Shown: positions 8,481 through 42,430 of the stretch, in pieces | Position numbering within the stretch: position 1 is the stretch's first letter | Layout: the number at the start of each line of letters is the position of its first letter | Source: a virus | Lineage: Duplodnaviria; Caudoviricetes | IMG/VR virus record: IMGVR_UViG_3300043812_000026 | Reading direction: 5' to 3' (one strand) | Length of the DNA: 64,000 bases | Translations under genes and position numbers: made by a program | The notes under the pieces: model-generated | What the model saw: the letters and a program-made list of their open reading frames with translations, nothing else | The model's database searches: none | What the model was told of the DNA's origin: nothing

Positions 8481-9940
8481 CTGCTATATAAAATGTGAAC
8501 AAACATAATCCTATATGCTAAGTAATTATGTTTGAGAAAGAAATATAGCTTTTCCTTTCTTTATTTTATTTACTGTCGTCAACGCTGGTATTCTCATATC
8601 CTAACTAGAGGGTAATGGCATTGACCAACTATTACAGCTTAAGGGCTTAGCCAGCCCCAATTATATTTTTTTCTTCTTTACGCTAAAGCCAAAAGATTTA
8701 AGACTGCATTTTGGTCTCGATCCATTACCACACCGCATTCATAACAAATATATTCATTGTGTTTAGTACCATGTTTTTGATTACCATCGAGACCAATTTT
8801 ATCTTTGCCTTGCTTGATGTGACCACATGCAGAACAGCGTTGTGTTGATGGATAGAATTGATCAGCTAAGATTAATTCTTTACCATACCATTCACACTTA
8901 TAGGTTAATATTTGTCTAAAATAACCAAACAGTGATCTCTGCATACCTTTAGAAGCTACATGAGTCATCTGCATCTGTTTGACTGCTAAATCTTCAATGA
9001 CAGTCTGGTCATAACTATCAACCAGCTTAGTCGTAAACTTCTGCAAAAGATCATGTTGGATATTAACTACTTTACGATAATCACGTTGCAACTTGGCTCT
9101 CGTTTTAACGTAATTATTACTTTGTGTAGCTAACTTACCATTAACCTTTCTCTTACGAGCTAGCATTTTTTGATAATGCCTGATCCGCTTATAAAGCTTT
9201 TGCAATTTAGCAGGTAAGACGTTAAGCTTCCCATCAGTATAGTTAAAGTGACCTACATTTAGATCTACTGCCGTCTTATTACCAGTTTTAGGTTTCTTAG
9301 CTATTTCAACTTCAAAAGGTAGGCTAGCCCAGTATTTACCATTTTCACGATAAATTGAAACAACTTTTAAATCACCATCTAAAGCCTTAGCACCTTTAAA
9401 ACTAATATCATACCAAGTTTTAACTCTGTGTGGTTTATCAAGTCTTAACTTACCATTAACAATCTTAGCTCTATCAGTTTTAAATCCTTGTCTAGGAGCT
9501 TTCTTAGATTTAAATCTAGGCTTTCCCCAATCAGGTAATGCTTTATTAAAGAACTTCTTCCAAGCATTACCTAAATCAGAAATTGCTAAGTATAAACACC
9601 GTGACGATAAACTATATTGCCAGTCAGCTTTATTAGAGGATAACTCCTTACGGACTCTGCTTTCATTAGGGATAGGATTGTCTTTCTTGTTCAAGTTATG
9701 AGCTTCATACATATCATTCCACAGCTCTAACCCTTGATTCCAACAATATCTACGATAATCGCATAGATCATCAAGAACTTTCTTCATTGTTTGGTTGGGA
9801 TAGAGTCTTACCTTTTGAACTCGAATCATTATTTTCACCACCTTGCATTGACATAATATCTACCTCACATTTTATCTTTCTGTAGATATTATATCATAGG
9901 TGATCGTATTTTAATATCCTTTAATTAACAGTTAATCACC
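8481..9940 (-). mobile_element. Non-autonomous IS607-like tnpB element
   Basis: tnpB followed by a roughly 200-nt structured 3' region ending TATAGCAG|G; no tnpA; left end approximate. Confidence 0.6.
8678..9841 (-). CDS. tnpB: TnpB RNA-guided nuclease
   Basis: RLYPN N-terminus; RuvC D (AVDLN), E (IEDL), D (DRDQNA); CxxC zinc ribbon. Confidence 0.93.
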   Translation of the reverse strand: MVKIMIRVQKVRLYPNQTMKKVLDDLCDYRRYCWNQGLELWNDMYEAHNLNKKDNPIPNESRVRKELSSNKADWQYSLSSRCLYLAISDLGNAWKKFFNKALPDWGKPRFKSKKAPRQGFKTDRAKIVNGKLRLDKPHRVKTWYDISFKGAKALDGDLKVVSIYRENGKYWASLPFEVEIAKKPKTGNKTAVDLNVGHFNYTDGKLNVLPAKLQKLYKRIRHYQKMLARKRKVNGKLATQSNNYVKTRAKLQRDYRKVVNIQHDLLQKFTTKLVDSYDQTVIEDLAVKQMQMTHVASKGMQRSLFGYFRQILTYKCEWYGKELILADQFYPSTQRCSACGHIKQGKDKIGLDGNQKHGTKHNEYICYECGVVMDRDQNAVLNLLALA

Positions 9941-23354: not shown

Positions 23355-23789
23355 TCAGTTTTCAACCTTTTCTTCAATAAAAGAAATATTGCTAAATCCC
23401 TCTAATTTTCTTGCAATTACCTTTAGTAAGTCAACATTTTTAAGTTTATTGCCTTCATTATCAACAAACCCGTTACGTCCTCGCTTAGCTAATAACTTCT
23501 TAGTAGTGAAAGTTTTAATTAAATACTGATTATCAGTTCTAATTAGTATCGACTTATTTTTAGAATGATCATAAGCTTTGAGAACCTGAAAGAAGGATTT
23601 TAGGGATAAACGATCTAAGTCAGAATTATCATCTGCCTTACTAAAATGATCCACAGTCTTACCATGCTTACAAGTATAAGAATAAACACCTCGGTTATTC
23701 TTATTAAAGATTGAAACATCGTATTTTGATGTAGGAACATTACCTGTAAGTAGGGGTAATGTTGAGAATGTGAACTTTTGTCTTGGCAT
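23355..23789 (-). CDS. Degenerate RNase H-fold protein
   Basis: ILIRTDNQYLIK and LKNVDLL match RNase HI motifs; the first catalytic DG motif is not evident. Confidence 0.6.
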   Translation of the reverse strand: MPRQKFTFSTLPLLTGNVPTSKYDVSIFNKNNRGVYSYTCKHGKTVDHFSKADDNSDLDRLSLKSFFQVLKAYDHSKNKSILIRTDNQYLIKTFTTKKLLAKRGRNGFVDNEGNKLKNVDLLKVIARKLEGFSNISFIEEKVEN

Positions 23790-24886
23790 TATAAATTAAT
23801 TCCTTTCTTTTCTTGGTATTCGTCCATAGCTTGATTAACAAGACTATCAACAAAATTATTCCCTTTATTATCTTGATGACTTTCGACTTTATATAAGAAA
23901 ACGTTACTAAATTTCTTTAAATGCTTTAACATACTCAGCCAAAGATCAGCATTCTTAATTTTTTCACCGTTAGGTTTCTTCAAATCATTCTTCGCCCAAG
24001 TGTATAACCAGCTATCGTTAGTCAGAGCTTTAATTACATACTGAGAATCAGTAACAATAATAATTGGTTTATCGTGTAAGTAATGAGCATCTCTTAAAGC
24101 TTGCAAAACCGCTTTTAACTCCATTCGCTGGTTAGTAGTGTTTTGAACCGCCTTATTAAAATTGATAGCGGGACGGTCTGGAATTTGAATCGAATAAGCA
24201 TAAGCGCCAATCTTAGTCTTATTTCTTTTACCACCATCAGTGTAAATTTTAATAGCTTTCTTAGGCAAAAAATCAAGCTGTGATAAAGGAGTAAATCCAT
24301 AGTCAATATGTTTCTTACCTTTTTGGATAATGATAGGATTACCAGATTTACGTTCAACCTTATTTCTAGTAAATTTCTTTCTTAATCTTGCACTAATATG
24401 AGGTCTAATTGTTTTAAGAATTTTCATTAATTCTTGATACACCCTAGGACTAGGATCAACTTCTTTAATAAGAAATCCTTTCTTAAATTGAGAAAGTAAT
24501 TCCCCAACCCTAATTAACATCTTTCTTTCCTTAGGAGTTAATCTAATATCATCTGGGTTAACCTTACCAGTAATCAAGTCTCTTAATTTAGGGTCTTGGA
24601 TTTCAATACAAATAACCTGTCTTTTCTTCATCGTTTGAAGAGCAATAATCAAAGCTCTCATATTAAGGATAAACTGATTAAGATTTTTAACAGCTTTATA
24701 ACCTCGATCAGTCTTACTATTTCCCATAATAAGATAGCCATAGGACACTAATTGAATTGGACCCAAGTCACAGTTTTGATTGTGATAGCTTGTGACTACA
24801 ATTTTATAACTGAAATCACCTTGCTTTAACAACTTAAGATTATTAAGTGATTTAACTGTATTAGATTTTGTTCTCATTTTATTCAT
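23789..24886 (-). CDS. rnhA: Ribonuclease HI with N-terminal extension
   Basis: IYTDGG, TTNQRMEL, VTDSQYV, KNADLW, SH..N..VD. Confidence 0.9.
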   Translation of the reverse strand: MNKMRTKSNTVKSLNNLKLLKQGDFSYKIVVTSYHNQNCDLGPIQLVSYGYLIMGNSKTDRGYKAVKNLNQFILNMRALIIALQTMKKRQVICIEIQDPKLRDLITGKVNPDDIRLTPKERKMLIRVGELLSQFKKGFLIKEVDPSPRVYQELMKILKTIRPHISARLRKKFTRNKVERKSGNPIIIQKGKKHIDYGFTPLSQLDFLPKKAIKIYTDGGKRNKTKIGAYAYSIQIPDRPAINFNKAVQNTTNQRMELKAVLQALRDAHYLHDKPIIIVTDSQYVIKALTNDSWLYTWAKNDLKKPNGEKIKNADLWLSMLKHLKKFSNVFLYKVESHQDNKGNNFVDSLVNQAMDEYQEKKGINL

Positions 24887-25369
24887 CTCTTCATAGTTTT
24901 ATTCATATGTATTAGCTAACTTGTATTAAGTAACGCTATGTATGAATTATAACTTCATCTTGCTTAGAAGTAAATCCTTATTTCAAACTTTCTTACTACC
25001 CTATCTTTTTCTTCTCTTCTTTATCCTTACTCTATATCTAGTCTTTATCTCTATCTTATGTCTTACTTATTATTACTCTATCTTATTACCTTATACCTTA
25101 CTTACTTACTTCCTAAGTTTAAATACTAGATAATAAGATAAGATTAATAAGAACTAACTTTAACTCAGACTATCTAACCCTAGCTTATTACACTTAAAAG
25201 AAACAACAAAACAAAACAGCACCCCCTAATATGCAGTCAATTCTCTAGTAATAAATCTACTCTAGTTATTGATATTACAGTATTAGAGAGGTATGTCATA
25301 TGATTTGTTAAGTTTTAATTCTAATATAATTAGATCAAGTAAGGCTATCACTAATTAGCGAGAATAAAG

Positions 25370-25826
25370 ACAGAGTAATAATTACTCCGCAAGACATCAG
25401 TACTTATTTACGTTTTACGGCTTATTCGTACTGTTCCATTTTTAACCTCAGCGCACCCTTGGTCCTACTTATCACATCCTAGTTTTAGCATCCGGGAATC
25501 AGAGCTTTTTATTGTTTACCCTCAGGGACCTCCCTGAGCATAGTTGATAAGTTAGGATTGGAACCCCAATACGCGGTCCAAGCAACAATTAGCAGAACTA
25601 ATTGTTACCACCCTGTTACGTTTCGTCTTCCCTACAAAGGGAGGGAATTAATGACAGGCACGTACAAGAGCCTTTAACGTTACCTACTGGTAGCGAGTCT
25701 ACTGAGTCATACCACGACTATTGGGAGACTAAACCCTACCGACTACCAAGGCTTAGGCAGTTATATACATACCAAGGTCGCTGTCGGTTTACACTATTCA
25801 ATTAGGTAACGTTAATTACCCGAATA
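25370..25826 (-). ncRNA. Large structured non-coding RNA of unknown family
   Basis: GC-enriched, no credible ORF; extended -10 TGATATACT at about 25829-25837; 12-bp long-range helix UAACGUUACCUA/UAGGUAACGUUA and several hairpins. Confidence 0.65.
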
Positions 25827-25968
25827 CTAGTATATCACACTTTCTCCCATTAAAACCATTTTATAGTGAAAAAAAATAAAAATTTTCTTGCTATAAGATC
25901 ATCACTTAGGATTGGATTAAGGAGTATAATTAAACTATTAAATCTGAACAACGAAAAGAGAATATTGA

Positions 25969-26229
25969 ATGTACCATGCAATTATCTTTCATACACCTAA
26001 TTGTATGAAGTGTAAGTTAACAGAAAAGCAATTGTCCCAGTTGATGTCAACAAAGATGGTTTTGATTGATCGGCTGGCTGAGACTCGAATGGATATTATC
26101 AATTACATGGAAAGTCACGGAATGGCTTCCTCACCTTTGGTTAGAATTTATCAAGGAGACAAGTTAGTGGACGAATGGAATGACTTTCAAGTATCAAAAA
26201 TTAAACAGTGGAAAGGTAGAGTTGGTTAA
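25969..26229 (+). CDS. nrdH: NrdH-like glutaredoxin
   Basis: TPNCMKC..T, SSP and WNDFQ motifs. Confidence 0.8.
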   Translation: MYHAIIFHTPNCMKCKLTEKQLSQLMSTKMVLIDRLAETRMDIINYMESHGMASSPLVRIYQGDKLVDEWNDFQVSKIKQWKGRVG

Positions 26230-26941: not shown

Positions 26942-28403
26942 CAAGGATAATTGGCGAGAATACCCCCACTTTGATAAGTGGGAGATGAATCGCCTTTTTG
27001 TTATAATAAAGAGTTTGCAAATCTTGCCTTGACTTCTTCTAAGTTTTGAAGTTATACTTCGCTTATAGAAGAAAAGAGGTGAAATGAATGTTAAAGGGAG
27101 TAAAATTACGCTTATATCCTAATGCTAAGCAACGGGATCAGTTAACTCAAATGTTTGGTAATGCTAGATTCATCTGGAACATTATGCTAGACATGGCTAA
27201 AGCTAGATATAAGAATAATCCTAGTAGTCAATTTGTAAATGAATATGGAATGAATTACTTGGTAAAGCAATTAAAACAAGAATATCCATTCTTGAAAGAA
27301 AGTGAGGCTAGAAGTTTACAAATATCTAATCATTACTTAAACCAATCCTTTAAGATGTTATTTAAACACCAAGGTGGCTATCCTAGGTTTAAAAGTCGTA
27401 AAGCTACTAAACAATCTTATACTGGTGATGGTAGTCGTGGTGGTTGTCATATTATAGCTAAACGTTATATAAGACTACCTAAACTAGGTTCTATCAAGAC
27501 TAGTAAGACTAGCCAATTAGAAGGACTAAAGATTAAAAGATATACAGTTACCTTAGATCCCACTGGTAGATATTATTTATCTTTAATGGTTGATGATCCT
27601 AATATCCAACCTTTAGAACCTACTGGAGCTGTTGTAGGGATAGATATGGGAGTAGCTGATCTAGCTATTACCAGTGATGGTTATAAATACCCTAAGTTCA
27701 ATACTCCTTACTTAGATCATAAGGTAGTAGAAGCTCAATCTAAGTTTAGTAAACGTAAACAAAGAGCTTTAGTTAGAGTAAGACAATGGAATCATAATCA
27801 TAAAGATACTAAGATGGAGTTAGAAGATTATTCTAATTGGCAGAAAGCACAAAAACAGAAAGCCAGATACCAAGCTAAAATAGCTAATAAGCGTAAAGAC
27901 TACTTACATAAGATAACAACTGAATTAGTAAAAAGTTATGATGTGATTGTAATAGAGGATTTGAAAACCAAAAATCTTTTAAAGAATCATCATTTAGCTA
28001 AATCAATTACTAATAACAGTTGGTACTTATTTAGAGAAATGTTGGAGTATAAGTGCAAATGGTATGGTAAACAATTAGTAGTTGTTAAGCCCAATTACAC
28101 TTCACAGATATGCTCTAATTGTGGTTACCACTCTGGTAAGAAACCACTAGATGTTAGAGAGTGGACTTGTCCTAATTGTGGTACTCACCATGATCGAGAT
28201 ATTAATGCTTCAATTAACATTCTAAATAGGGGATTAAAAGAGTTAAAGAAAATTAAGGCTAGGGACTAGCCATGGTAAAAGAGCTTAGTTCTGTAAGTTA
28301 GGTTTAGTGAATACACTTGTAAGATCCTAAATACTACTAAGTGTTCCCAGAATCCCCACTTCAAGTATTAAACTAAAAGTTTAGCTAAGTGGGAGAAGTT
28401 CAA
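26942..28403 (+). mobile_element. IS200/IS605-family tnpB-only element
   Basis: TTTAT immediately 5'; subterminal hairpins CCCACTT..AAGTGGG at both ends; right end GTTCAA; excision rejoins an ACGCT/GGCGT hairpin. Confidence 0.85.
27088..28269 (+). CDS. tnpB: TnpB RNA-guided nuclease
   Basis: HTH_OrfB N-terminus; GIDMG, IEDL, DRDINA; zinc ribbon. Confidence 0.95.
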   Translation: MLKGVKLRLYPNAKQRDQLTQMFGNARFIWNIMLDMAKARYKNNPSSQFVNEYGMNYLVKQLKQEYPFLKESEARSLQISNHYLNQSFKMLFKHQGGYPRFKSRKATKQSYTGDGSRGGCHIIAKRYIRLPKLGSIKTSKTSQLEGLKIKRYTVTLDPTGRYYLSLMVDDPNIQPLEPTGAVVGIDMGVADLAITSDGYKYPKFNTPYLDHKVVEAQSKFSKRKQRALVRVRQWNHNHKDTKMELEDYSNWQKAQKQKARYQAKIANKRKDYLHKITTELVKSYDVIVIEDLKTKNLLKNHHLAKSITNNSWYLFREMLEYKCKWYGKQLVVVKPNYTSQICSNCGYHSGKKPLDVREWTCPNCGTHHDRDINASINILNRGLKELKKIKARD

Positions 28404-31465: not shown

Positions 31466-31524
31466 AGGGTAGTAGTTCAATGGTAGATCATGCAAGGACG
31501 GGGGTTCGATTCCTTCCTACCCTA
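31466..31524 (+). ncRNA. tRNA shell lacking the anticodon arm
   Basis: AGGGTAG/CTACCCT acceptor, D-arm, GGGGG-TTCGATT-CCTTC T-arm; only about 10 nt between D and T arms. Confidence 0.7.
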
Positions 31525-37730: not shown

Positions 37731-40700
37731 ATGAAAAGAATGTTAGTAGTATTGGATCATTATGACGCTGATATGTTTAAAGTGGTTAATAAGAAAGCCG
37801 AAGGAAACTTTTTACATAGTGTCGTAGGTTCAATTCTTTCTAATAAAATTATTGGTCACCCAAAAACAGGTTTAGATACGAAAGATACAACAGTAGACTT
37901 GAAGTTTCTTTATACTGATAAAGTACCCCCTCGTAATAAATACACTAATGCAGTTGTTAAGCCATCTGCTAGTATCTTGCATAAGAAACGTGATGAGATG
38001 GTGCAGTATATCTTAGATACTAAACCCGATATTGTTGTTTCTTATGGAAGTTGGTTTAAGAATGAATTAACTTCTTTATATAAACTTCCTAAAGATATGT
38101 TTGAATTAATTCCGTTTAAGCTACCCCAAAGTGACTTTACTACTTACTTAGTATTTAACCCGTCACTTAAACAACAATTCTTCTTGGGTAGCTATGAACG
38201 AGATAAGATGATTATTAGTAATCGAATGGTTAATCGGTTTTTAAAAGGTGGGATTGAGAATACTAAGCCTCAGTTTGGTAAGTATCGTTTAGTTACTAAT
38301 TATCATGAGGTAGAACGTATTTTTAATGAAGTTTTACCTAAGTACCCAATCATCGCACTGGACTTTGAAACTAATACCCTTGAAACTTATCGTAAAGGGT
38401 GCTAAGGCTATTATGGTAAGTATGAGTTGGGAAGAACATCAAGGTGTTTCGATTCCGCTTAATCATCGTCTTAGTCCTAATTTGTGGACTAAAGAACAGT
38501 TCGATAGTATCATTAATATGATTAAAGAATTAATGATGAAAGAGCAACGTAAGGTATTACATAACTGTATCTATGATATTCATATGATGATGGATATTTA
38601 CGGGCTAGAGTATGCTACTAATTGTGTTGATACTATGCTTATGTATTATGAAACAGTGGATGAGAACCAAGGCGCTCAACGTGGGCTAAAGCACTTAGCT
38701 TATAAGTATACTGATATGGGTGGTTATGAAGACGAACGTGATCAAGCTATTGAACAATACTTAAAGAATGATTATGACCGTTGGTATTCTACTGAAATGG
38801 AAAAGTATGAAAAAGGCGAACGTAGTCGTAAGCCAAGTAAGACACAGTATACAGCTCCTACTAACCAAGTAGACGGTGGTAAGGTAGATTTCGAGTGGTT
38901 GCCTATGGAAACTATTTATAAGTACGCTTCTGCTGATACTGATGTTACCCTCCAACTTTATCACATTTTTGATAAAAAGGTTAAGTCTCGTCCTAAGTGG
39001 GTTAAGTTCTGCTATGAATTCTTCCCACAACTATGCGATACTTTAGCTTATATGCAACATACTGGTTTTCAAATGGATATGGATAAAATGGAGAAATACA
39101 GAGAACACTTCACTACTGATATTGAAGAAGTTACTAAAAAGATGTATGAGGTTTCTCCCGAAATCCAAGAATACGAAAATCATAACCTAGCTCTTTTGCA
39201 AGAACGGGAACAGATTAAAGCTATCAAGCCTGCTGATCGGACACCAGAGCAGAAAGAGAAATTTAAGGAATATGGTAAGCTACGTGGTGAAGATACTAAT
39301 GGTATTCCTAAATACAAGTTTAACCCTGGATCTAGTGAAAAGATTGGCTATGTTTTATACCATATGTTAGGCTACAAGCTACCTGCTGATAAAGAGTATT
39401 TAAAACCAAAAGCTGTCCAGTCTCGTAAGTTAAGCCATCCAGAAAAACTTACGTGGAAAGATTATAAGACTGATCGTAATTCAGCCCTACCCTATATTAA
39501 AAAGACTTATCATGCTCCATTAGTTGATTTATTGTTGGCTTATTCCAACGATAAGAAAATGATTAGCTCTACTGTTGAGGGATATAGTAAGCTGGCTGAT
39601 GCTACGGGAAAATCACATCCTACTTTCCACCCATCTGGTTGCTTAGACGGGGACACTTTAATCCCTACCAGTTTAGGTATTAAGAAATTAAAAGATCTTT
39701 CAGACAATAGAGAAGAAGATACTTTTAAGGATTTGAAAATTGATATTATTAATAAAGATAATAATAAAGAATTAACAGACGCTTTTTATTATTCTGGTAT
39801 TCGAGACTCCTATCAGATCAATTTAGAGAATGGTAGTAGTATTATTACTACTCCTAACCATCCTCTGATTGTTAATAATTTTTTAAAAACTAATAATAAA
39901 ATTCCAATGTACAAATATAAAGGAAAACCTTACTTGACTAACTATTTAAGTAAGTTTAATGATGAGGAATGGCTACCTACTAAAGATATTAAGGCAGGTT
40001 ATTGGATTAAAGGTACTATTGGGGGAAATATTTATGGTAATAAGACAACTATTGAATTTAACGACAGTGAATTTCCTAGCAATACTAGAAGTAAAAAGAA
40101 AAAAGTTACCCTCCCACATGAGTTGACTCCAGAGCTAGCAGAATTCTTAGGAATGTATACTGCTGATGGTAGTTATAGTAGTAGCAAAAAGGGTAGCCAG
40201 ATTCTTATTACTAATGATGATCAAGTTGTTCAGGAGAGGTTGGATTATTTAATTAAACACTTATTCAATGTAGATCCTTATTATCGAGTAGATACAAGAC
40301 ACGGTAGGGAAATTACTGTTAATATAGGCTCTACACAAGTTTTTAGGTATCTTAAAAAAATGTTTAATATTAGTTCCCGAGGGTACGAAAAAACCGTCCC
40401 ACAGTTAATATTAGACTCCACAAAAGAAGTTCAATTAGCTTATTTAAAAGGACTTACGCTTGACTCTAGTATTTATAAGAAAGGGTATCCTTCCATTTAT
40501 TTAAGTACAACCTCGGAGGAGCAGGCAAAGGCAGTCTATTCGATGCTATTAAATATTGGTATCTATGCTAGATTTGCTAAACGTAAGATTTACCCTAGAC
40601 TAGGGTATAAACATGAACATCCCTTATATGATATAATGATTAGTCACGAAGACGTAAAAGTTTTTGTAGAGTGTATAGGATTTGTTGAAATAGAAGAAAA

Positions 40701-42430
40701 GCTTAAACCTTTGATTGCTAAAATAAATAATTATTCTTATACGAAAAAACCTAAACATTATGGTGTTATAAGATATAATAATTTTATATGGTTAAAAATA
40801 AAGTCTATTGATTATTTAGGAAAAAGACCTATGTATGACTTAAAGACTTGTGACACTCATAGTTTTTTAGGTAACAATATTATTAGTCATAATACGTCTA
40901 CTTCTAGGCTCTCTAGTAGTAATTTTAATGCCCAGAATATTAAAAAGCCTACAAGTGACGTTTATGATCCTAATTATAATTATTCAGCTAAAGGACTATT
41001 TAAGTCAAGATTTAAGGGTGGATATATTTTTAATATTGATTATAAGTCACTAGAAATCTTTATTTCTTCTTTAATTGCTAAAGATATTGGTATGATGCAG
41101 GCTTTAATGGATGGTGCTGATATACATAAACGTAACGCTAGTTTAGCTTTTAACATTCCTGTTGATGAGGTAGATTCCGAACATAGATACCTTGCGAAAG
41201 CCGTAGACAAACTTGCGGCCATATTATAGTAATATAATTTGAAAAACATCCCCTAAACGGGCTTACCGTAATAAGGTGGTAAGAGAAGCTAAACCTTATA
41301 ATTTAAGTAGGGCAGGCTAATCCCGTACCAAGTTAAAACAGGTCTAACGACTATATAGGGAATATCCTAATAGGATAAAGATATAGTCTTAACTATAACG
41401 AAAGTTATTAGACAAAAATGAAGTTTTGGTTAATTACTAAAAGTAAGCCACTTTTAACAGTAATGTTAATTGAAAAATATCCCCTAAACGGGCTTACCGT
41501 AATAAGGTGGTAAGAGAAGCTAAACCTTATAATTTAAGTAGGGCAGGCTAATCCCGTACCAAGTTAAAACAGGTCTAACGACTATATAGGGAATATCCTA
41601 ATAGGATAAAGATATAGTCTAATCTACTTAGAAATAAGTAGTTAATATAATTGTTACTTTACGGAGAGTCTCCACAAGGACTTTCAGAGTCACGTGGATT
41701 AACTTTAGAAGAAGCTCAACAGGTTTATGATAAAGTGCTAAGTGCTATGCCACAAATGCAAAAGGCGATTGAGGTTACCGAAGACTTTGTAGAGCAACGG
41801 GGATATGTAGAGACGATTGCAGGACACGTAAGACGATTACCAGAAGCTACTCAGAGTTTAGATTATGGTAAGAAATCTCGTGCTATACGTCAGTCTTTTA
41901 ACGCAGTTGTTCAAGGTAGCGGAGCATATTGTACTAATACTGCTCTAATTATCATTCGCAATACGTTACGTAAATATGGGTTAAAGTCTCGTATTGCTAT
42001 TACGGTGCATGACTCGATCGTATTAGACGTACACCCAGATGAAATTAATATTGTCCCAGCAATGGCAAAGAAGATTATGGAACATTTACCTATTCAAGAT
42101 TTTATTCTTAACATAAATGATTTCCCTACTTTAAAAATTGCTGATAAGTATAAGATTAATGATACTCAATTCCGTTTCCCACTTTTCGGTGAAATTGCTT
42201 TTGGCAAGACTTATGGTGATGATCTTGACTTCGACTTTGATGATTACAAAGCTCTGGGGATTGATAGGTATTATCAATTTAGTATGGAATGTAAGTACAT
42301 TGAGGATAAGGCTAATACTGATTTAAGTAAGGAAGATGATAATGATAAGAAAGCTGAGATTGTTAAACAACGAGATCGGCAATTAGAGGAAATTAGAAAT
42401 AAATATTTTAAAAAGGTTGACAATAAATAA
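37731..42430 (+). CDS. polA: Family A DNA polymerase (join 37731-41204, 41421-41430, 41654-42430; one extra base near 38397; intein)
   Basis: Exo motifs DFET, HN..YD, YASAD; RLSS; motif A DYKSLE; reconstructed motif B KAVSFGLLYG; motif C VHDS; mature length about 1001 aa. Confidence 0.92.
39640..40893 (+). mobile_element. Intein with LAGLIDADG endonuclease (418 aa)
   Basis: G|CLDGDT ... TPNHP ... LGMYTADG ... YLKGLTLD ... YDL..ISHN|T. Confidence 0.93.
41205..41420 (+). mobile_element. ORF-less group I intron 1 in polA
   Basis: P1 GCCGU/GCGGC, P10 AAACUU/AAGUUU, P7 GACUA/UAGUC, terminal G. Confidence 0.9.
41431..41653 (+). mobile_element. ORF-less group I intron 2 in polA
   Basis: P1 UGGU/GCCA, P10 AAAGUAA/UUACUUU; core nearly identical to intron 1; terminal G. 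Confidence 0.9.

Follow-up and report, generated by a model that had tools for sequence, protein, structure and literature searches.

A candidate family of large structured RNA beside the RNase H genes of a large phage and its relatives

The window analyzed here, a 64-kb stretch of phage DNA, contains a long gap with no conserved ORF on either strand (24887–25968), and the question raised by this locus is what such a gap encodes at a point where the genes diverge. An earlier note on this DNA had described a divergent strand switch at which a minus-strand promoter drives a highly paired RNA of ~450 nt, followed by a G tract, a purine-rich tract, and an RNase H gene, and had read the whole as either an R-loop-primed replication origin resembling that of ColE1 or an undescribed large non-coding RNA or leader. 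The elements it listed were all found, at or within a few bases of where it had placed them, and the strand switch with its promoter and paired RNA was borne out as a gap bearing an extended -10 motif and a fold of ~460 nt.

Gap layout and relatives

The DNA polymerase encoded in the window was ~35% identical to polymerase I-type enzymes of Twort-like Staphylococcus and Bacillus phages, and the endolysin shared 56–58% identity with endolysins of Limosilactobacillus fermentum phages. From these two identities we consider the window to be that of a large Herelleviridae-like phage, the host of which is probably a lactobacillus. The genome has a G+C content of ~30%. Read along the minus strand, the gap consisted of an extended -10 promoter and an RNA of ~460 nt, two terminator-like hairpins (T1 and T2), a purine tract, and then a second promoter leading into rnhA (Table 1). 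A G+C island at 25400–25800 (41–47% G+C) was bordered by flanks of 22–30%, and the cumulative G-C skew had its minimum at 25800–25900.

Table 1. Features of the gap and its surroundings, with positions in the window.
Feature	Position	Strand	Description or basis
Second, shorter RNase H-like gene	23355–23789	-	144 aa; Pfam RNase_H E 5.5e-6, PHROG 531; in tandem
RNase HI gene (rnhA)	23789–24886	-	365 aa; Pfam RNase_H E 2.7e-29, residues 210–354
Non-coding gap	24887–25968		1082 bases; between minus-strand RNase H gene and plus-strand thioredoxin-like gene; divergent strand switch
Sigma-A-type promoter of RNase H operon	24946–24974	-	TTTACT, 17 nt, TATAAT; scan, 10/12 matches
Purine-rich tract	24975–25125	-	Almost C-free, many one-directional TAAG; most extreme tract of window
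T2, predicted terminator	25196–25290	-	Long imperfect hairpin (25290–25222) and U-rich run containing UGUUUUGUUUUGU (25221–25196)
AU-rich block	25294–25338	-	TTGATCTAA.TAT.TTAGAA.TAAAACTT, then TGACA; between T1 and T2, nearly identical in A and B
T1, predicted terminator	25360–25390	-	9-bp hairpin (25390–25370, -8.5 kcal/mol) and U-rich run CUUUAUUCUC; terminator-like in scan
Structured RNA, predicted	25360–25822	-	~460 nt; fold z, covariation, no Rfam match
Extended -10 promoter of RNA, predicted	25829–25837	-	TGATATACT; read from sequence, without good -35
Thioredoxin-like gene	25969–26229	+	Right flank of gap
DNA polymerase I-type gene	38326–41229		

The four-part layout was common to three diverged lineages, A (the window), B (L006), and C (L045), with gaps of 1.1–1.2 kb that contained a G+C island. 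Near-identical copies of the window locus (94–99%; L004, L005, L008–L011, L029) came from IMG/VR, ENA, and a WGS metagenome, and the nearest record was a 94.6 kb IMG/VR contig that was 97% identical over the locus. Lineage B (L006, L007, L041, L042) was reached through its RNase H protein, which was 46% identical to that of the window. The IMG/VR sample that gave lineage C also gave two contigs of clade A, L004 and L005; the RNase H of C was only 30% identical, whereas its thioredoxin-like gene was 93.5% identical in DNA. On the thioredoxin side of ~25840, A and C were 88–93% identical (L045 3226–3363), and the RNA was strongly diverged. With one side this similar and the RNase H at 30%, we place a mosaic boundary at the RNA promoter (~25840). 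The RNA core was still recognizable in C using the covariance model R2 (80.8 bits, with C itself included in the alignment of R2).

Rfam 15 at the gathering score returned no match in the region, and at E values up to 10 the only match was a chance snoRNA match outside the RNA, with GOLLD, ROOL, and other families unmatched. Distant-mode blastn with the A and B regions as queries gave no match among 50,697 GenBank phage records. Searches with R2 covered only a chosen set of loci and phage records, and within that set neither the 60 phage RNase H loci nor the more distant thioredoxin-gene contexts added a member, and nothing was found in four cultured Herelleviridae (the whole phage K record, LfeInf, Lb338-1, and LP65). 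The more distant relatives of the thioredoxin-like gene sit within gene arrays that do not have this gap. A pattern scan of JGI metagenomes yielded 11 stretches, L029 being the only true relative; the others were G+C-rich without similarity and were therefore taken as chance matches. The corresponding scans found 0 matches in GTDB genomes and only three contigs in IMG/VR, all from sample 3300043781. Matches to cellular RNase H were discarded as irrelevant. Since Rfam, the GenBank phages, IMG/VR, and the four cultured Herelleviridae provided no match outside the three lineages, the RNA is, by these searches, a new family that is absent from Rfam and so far narrowly distributed.

Mobile elements were observed in the same phages. 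A TnpB/IS605 OrfB gene (Pfam) occurred three genes from the locus at 27088–28269 on the plus strand, and an ORF of TnpB-like length (387 aa; 8678–9841, minus strand) had a Transposase-1 RNA predicted by Rfam at its 3′ side (8579–8637, 62 bits). TnpB was placed differently in related phages, after rnhA in L006 and after a LysM gene in L008, indicating that these elements move within the phage group. Rfam also reported a 59-nt tRNA-like element at 31466–31524 (plus strand, 43.9 bits), where ARAGORN reported none.

Promoter and fold of the RNA

Lineages B (TGTTATAAT) and C (TGATATAAT) had a TGnTATAAT-type motif at the same place as the extended -10 of the window, giving an A/B/C consensus of TGnTATAMT. 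A simple promoter scan missed this motif because the scan requires a -35. Host RNA polymerase would be expected to transcribe the RNA from the extended -10, starting at about 25822 (~25823–25821), and with such a promoter the folded RNA would therefore probably be made early. The transcript would end at T1, or ~165 nt further at T2. The predicted RNA was ~460 nt long in the window phage, ~450 nt in lineage B, and at least 540 nt in lineage C.

The island folded better than its dinucleotide shuffles, with a z score of -3.8 on the minus strand (0/100 shuffles as good) and -3.3 on the plus strand. A hand alignment of A vs B contained 19 helices and 101 pairs, 98 of which were standard in both sequences, with 15 one-side changes and 29 compensatory pairs, the latter a generous count because the helices were picked to fit both sequences. 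Sliding the 3′ partner by 1–3 bases left 0–2 compensatory pairs, and the observed counts were reached by 0/5000 shuffles. As a check leaning less on hand choices, a covariance model with the same structure was built from clade A alone (168 positions), and it scored B at 63.8 bits and C at 16.5 bits. In the model-made alignment of A, B, and C over the 3′ domain, 97.6% of cells were paired and 17/37 pairs had both-side changes, values biased toward the structure since the alignment was fitted to the model; the controls gave 0–3 both-side changes with slid partners and 0/500 for shuffles. Covariation and a covariance-model search in relatives, which the earlier note had proposed as a check on the RNA, yielded compensatory changes across A, B, and C and the recovery of B and C by the model built from clade A.

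Most variants within a clade also preserved pairing. Among the window, L004, and L005, P5 passes from C-G through U-G to U-A, and P4 keeps six pairs despite a register shift brought about by three substitutions (hand reading). G-U pairs occupied 26/202 cells in the A-B alignment and would be A-C on the opposite strand, which identifies the minus strand as the functional one.

The predicted fold begins with a 5′ hairpin, followed by the long-range closing helix P1 (47–57 with 383–392, counted from 25835). P1 encloses a multi-helix junction comprising the P2/P3 domain, P4, P5, P6, and the P7 domain, and is followed by P8 and the T1 hairpin. The P2/P3 domain varies in size between lineages, and lineage-specific hairpins are present. 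At the P3 apex, the minimum-energy fold of A agrees with C and our alternative agrees with B. By hand reading, P2 may compete in A and B with another long-range pairing, in which its 5′ strand is taken up by the 3′ arm of P8. In each of the three lineages, the loop of P7d is complementary to a GGA block further downstream (UCC/GGA in A, UUCC/GGAA in B, and CUCCAU/AUGGAG in C), and the P7 domain is therefore likely to carry a pseudoknot. A kissing interaction between AUUGG in the P6 loop and CCAAU in P3 was possible in A and B and was set aside as unsupported in C.

Conservation extended to unpaired positions. The unpaired blocks GGACC.AGGG and GGUUAAA were invariant or nearly so in A, B, and C, and the unpaired blocks GUAUGUAUAUA and CGAAUAAG were identical between A and B. 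Many unpaired blocks of 7–12 nt were identical in phages with neighboring proteins that share only 30–46% identity. Such invariance outside the helices suggests a tertiary fold or a bound partner. At the level of predicted structure, these data show that the G+C island is the gene for a large, intricately folded non-coding RNA.

Downstream elements and the RNase H genes

Both T1 and T2 had a hairpin with a directly following U-rich run, the arrangement of an intrinsic (Rho-independent) terminator, and both are predicted terminators. In the scan, T1 had 9 bp with 3 G-C pairs and was followed by CTTTATTCTC. Its stem covaried in B (3 compensatory pairs) and the U-rich block after it was identical in A and B. 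In B, T1 was weak (-5.4 kcal/mol) and its U run was interrupted. The region after T1 in A was no more structured than shuffles (z -0.4). The first 29 bases of the AU-rich block between the two hairpins (25310–25338) fit a degenerate 29-base pattern that covers A and B, with four positions given as K or R; this pattern occurred once in the 64-kb window, with 0 chance matches expected. TTAGAA and TGACA of this block were also present in C, TGACA being read from the alignment. A sigma-A promoter at TGACA before T2 was rejected because its -10 was not conserved.

The T2 hairpins of A (-19.6 kcal/mol) and B (-30.5 kcal/mol) were unrelated in sequence, occupied the same position, and were followed by the same U-rich block; T2 in C appeared similar by eye. 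In every lineage the last arm of the hairpin was G-rich. The GGGGG that the earlier note had marked at ~25220 as a G tract is present at 25222–25226, but it is not free-standing. It forms the 3′ arm of the 70-nt T2 hairpin, pairs with CUCUC, and is immediately followed by the U-rich run, and this arm covaries: the counterparts GGGAAGGAG in B and CUAGGAG in C are each paired inside their own hairpin. A 35-nt AT-rich stretch at 25129–25163 had a second copy, 83% identical, ~2 kb away in related contigs.

The almost C-free purine tract, previously placed at 24985–25115 with a length of ~150 nt, coincided with the skew extreme of the window, as 24971–25120 was the most purine/pyrimidine-skewed 150 nt in the 64 kb (115/150 pyrimidines and 3 G on the plus strand). 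TAAG reached 12 per 200 nt in the tract and ≤7 in any other 200-nt window outside it. Lineage A had 14 TAAG in 314 nt and lineage B had 13 in 317 nt, relative to an estimated ~3.5 expected from base composition, and the tract was also TAAG-rich in lineage C. A hydrophobic antisense ORF across the tract (63 aa) was truncated in L004 and absent in B and C, and is therefore not considered a gene. Within clade A, the 3′ arm of T1 (25366–25382) was complementary at 15/16 positions to the purine tract (25069–25084). This pairing of the RNA 3′ end with the tract was strong in A and no better than shuffles in B, and without conservation in B it is probably not functional.

The RNase H operon promoter sits 60 nt before the start codon of rnhA. 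RNase HI had intact DEDD residues (D217, E256, D280, and D347) and an N-terminal extension of ~200 aa without an assigned fold; an Atlas search weakly suggested that this N-terminal part, too, is RNase H-like. In lineage C (L045 4424–6456), the tblastn match to RNase H residues 115–360 was split over two ORFs of 231 and 253 aa, and a separate ORF of 201 aa was located just upstream of these two (L045 4424–5029). The DEDD-intact RNase HI and the polymerase I-type gene agree with the earlier observation that this phage encodes both RNase H and a family A polymerase.

Possible functions and known systems

The undescribed large non-coding RNA that the earlier note had offered as its second option is well supported by the conserved promoter, the terminator-like ends, covariation across three lineages, and the absence of an Rfam match. 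Our best reading, to which we give roughly even credence, is that of a discrete, folded early RNA. Host RNA polymerase would transcribe it from the extended -10 to T1 or T2, and it would be released from the template instead of being kept there as an R-loop primer. It would then act as a discrete folded particle, either alone or with a protein partner, and could be likened to other large ornate RNAs of Lactobacillales phages and to the long non-coding RNAs that phage K makes early and in abundance. The conserved block, the T2 hairpin, and the TAAG purine tract would be separate DNA-level or leader elements before the RNase H operon. Retention of these three downstream elements in three lineages is what a purely trans-acting RNA does not explain and what an origin would explain together, and the position between two same-direction promoters is, by analogy, that of a transcript-dependent origin of the c2 type.

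We regard as possible, though rather doubtful, that the locus is a replication origin with an essential structured transcript. Here the folded RNA from the early promoter would be a pre-primer or an activator. Its transcription would continue into the AT-rich region of hairpin and repeats and so open or prime the origin, and RNase H and the phage polymerase would process and extend the RNA, as in ColE1 or, closer in layout, at the origin of lactococcal phage c2 with its transcript PE1-T. The purine tract with its TAAG repeats would serve as the hybrid-forming zone or as initiator binding sites. Purine-rich RNA on a pyrimidine template is the most stable kind of hybrid, and the tract would yield exactly such an RNA. 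Preservation of the entire four-part non-coding layout of 1.1–1.2 kb at a divergent switch in three lineages argues for an origin, as do the intact RNase HI and its paralogue directly downstream and the two same-direction promoters flanking a region without a conserved ORF, as described for the c2-type origin (PMC7150918). The putative origin of phage K likewise adjoins its long non-coding RNA unit (PMC9241854). The cumulative G-C skew minimum at 25800–25900 also fits an origin, but it is inseparable from the coincident change in gene direction. Against an origin, the two terminator-like signals lie between the RNA and the tract, and the complementarity of the RNA 3′ end to the tract in A was absent in B. 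The G run is a covarying hairpin arm with no conserved G tract, and a simple consensus scan found no promoter-like site for an antisense control RNA. No origin of a GenBank phage was similar in sequence, and the invariant unpaired blocks, which are many, suit a tertiary fold or a bound partner more than a primer.

The RNA could also be a cis-acting leader of the RNase H operon that senses a signal or binds a factor and sets read-through of T1 and T2 into rnhA, which would agree with the shared direction of the RNA and the operon, the two terminator-like hairpins after the RNA, and a possible switch in which the P8 3′ arm pairs with the P2 5′ strand instead in A and B. We find this improbable, as a strong promoter of consensus type already serves the operon 60 nt ahead of the start codon, ~470 nt separate T1 from rnhA, and inspection by eye revealed no antiterminator pairing covarying with the arms of the terminators. 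Least probable, and to us very unlikely, is that the conserved pairing works in DNA, where a single strand would fold into an initiation signal of lagging-strand or single-strand type. G-T pairs are tolerated in DNA too, so the same strand preference would be expected, and the site may be an origin region; however, the paired region is immediately preceded by a conserved promoter and immediately followed by terminator-like hairpins, and the size and pseudoknot-like pairing are typical of RNA. We rank the discrete RNA above the origin transcript, the leader, and the single-stranded DNA signal, in that order, given the hairpin nature of the G run, the two terminator-like signals, the lack of conserved pairing between the RNA end and the tract, and the invariant unpaired blocks.

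To our knowledge, bacteria and phages rarely have structured non-coding RNAs of >400 nt, and hardly any of these has been assigned a function. Novel RNA biochemistry may therefore be sought in every further family whose covariation is solid, be it a ribozyme, an assembly built of RNA alone, or a machine of RNA and protein. The present family is carried by virulent phages, probably those of lactobacilli from food and gut, and sits at a defined transcription unit that would be early, tied to conserved DNA elements and an RNase H gene. No mapped Herelleviridae origin is known to us, only a putative one in phage K that comes from transcription data. If the origin reading were true, it would locate and explain replication initiation in a family that is used for therapy and troublesome in fermentations, and would give a large phage of Herelleviridae type an RNA-dependent origin like that of ColE1 or c2, with an adjacent RNase HI that processes the RNA.

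Compared with known systems, the locus resembles ColE1 in having a folded RNA of ~500 nt from a constitutive host promoter, with RNase H and a family A polymerase available. A promoter and a folded pre-primer of several hundred nt have their counterparts in the extended -10 found in three lineages and in the covarying RNA of ~460 nt. The ColE1-like R-loop origin of the earlier note is matched to this extent, with promoter, folded RNA, and enzymes present in a c2-like layout; the G run and the antisense promoter have no such match, and the terminator-like hairpins argue against it. The conserved G run of ColE1 pairs with a C run in the template, whereas the GGGGG of the window pairs with CUCUC in a hairpin. 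ColE1 has a promoter for the antisense RNA I, and the simple consensus scan of 24700–26100 detected no plus-strand promoter-like site here. ColE1 needs uninterrupted transcription to the origin and then cleavage by RNase H and extension by polymerase I; here the terminator-like T1 and T2 hairpins lie in the path, and the enzymes are encoded by the phage. There is no homology between ColE1 and the window RNA.

The c2-type origin is a non-coding stretch between divergent gene blocks with an early promoter at either end, both pointing the same way, and neither an ORF nor a ribosome-binding site follows the first. The non-coding early transcript made from that first promoter is believed to start replication, with its length and structure being important (PMC7150918). 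An origin of this type supports replication and needs its transcript in cis. The window shares with c2 (Ceduovirus, PE1-T) the layout of divergent blocks and two same-direction promoters (25837–25829 and 24974–24946) without a conserved ORF, and both of these promoters would be early judging from their host-type consensus. Unlike c2, whose origin works with host proteins alone, the window phage is a large myovirus-type phage with its own replisome. Using blastn, the A and B regions had no relatedness to the c2, bIL67, and 923 origin types, and conservation of the window-phage RNA between distant lineages far exceeded that of the c2 origin types from group to group.

In phage K (Kayvirus, Herelleviridae), RNA-seq showed a long non-coding RNA that is very abundant and has an early promoter to itself, on the minus strand upstream of tRNA and lysis genes and near a strand switch, and the putative origin of phage K was placed in the adjacent untranscribed AT-rich gap (PMC9241854). 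Phage K and the window have in common the virus family, a non-coding RNA on a minus-strand arm that measures at least several hundred nt, and an early host-type promoter for this RNA. The phage K RNA differs in being ~1.15 kb without a reported covariation model, and has no sequence or model similarity to the window RNA.

GOLLD and ROOL (RF01998, RF03087) occur in phages and prophages of lactic acid bacteria and have no assigned function; self-assembly has been seen for both. They are like the window RNA in being large structured RNAs of Lactobacillales phages and prophages with conserved unpaired nucleotides and multi-helix junctions. The window RNA differs from both in being smaller (~460 nt), unmatched by Rfam, and situated by RNase H at a divergent switch, whereas GOLLD and ROOL lie beside tRNA genes.
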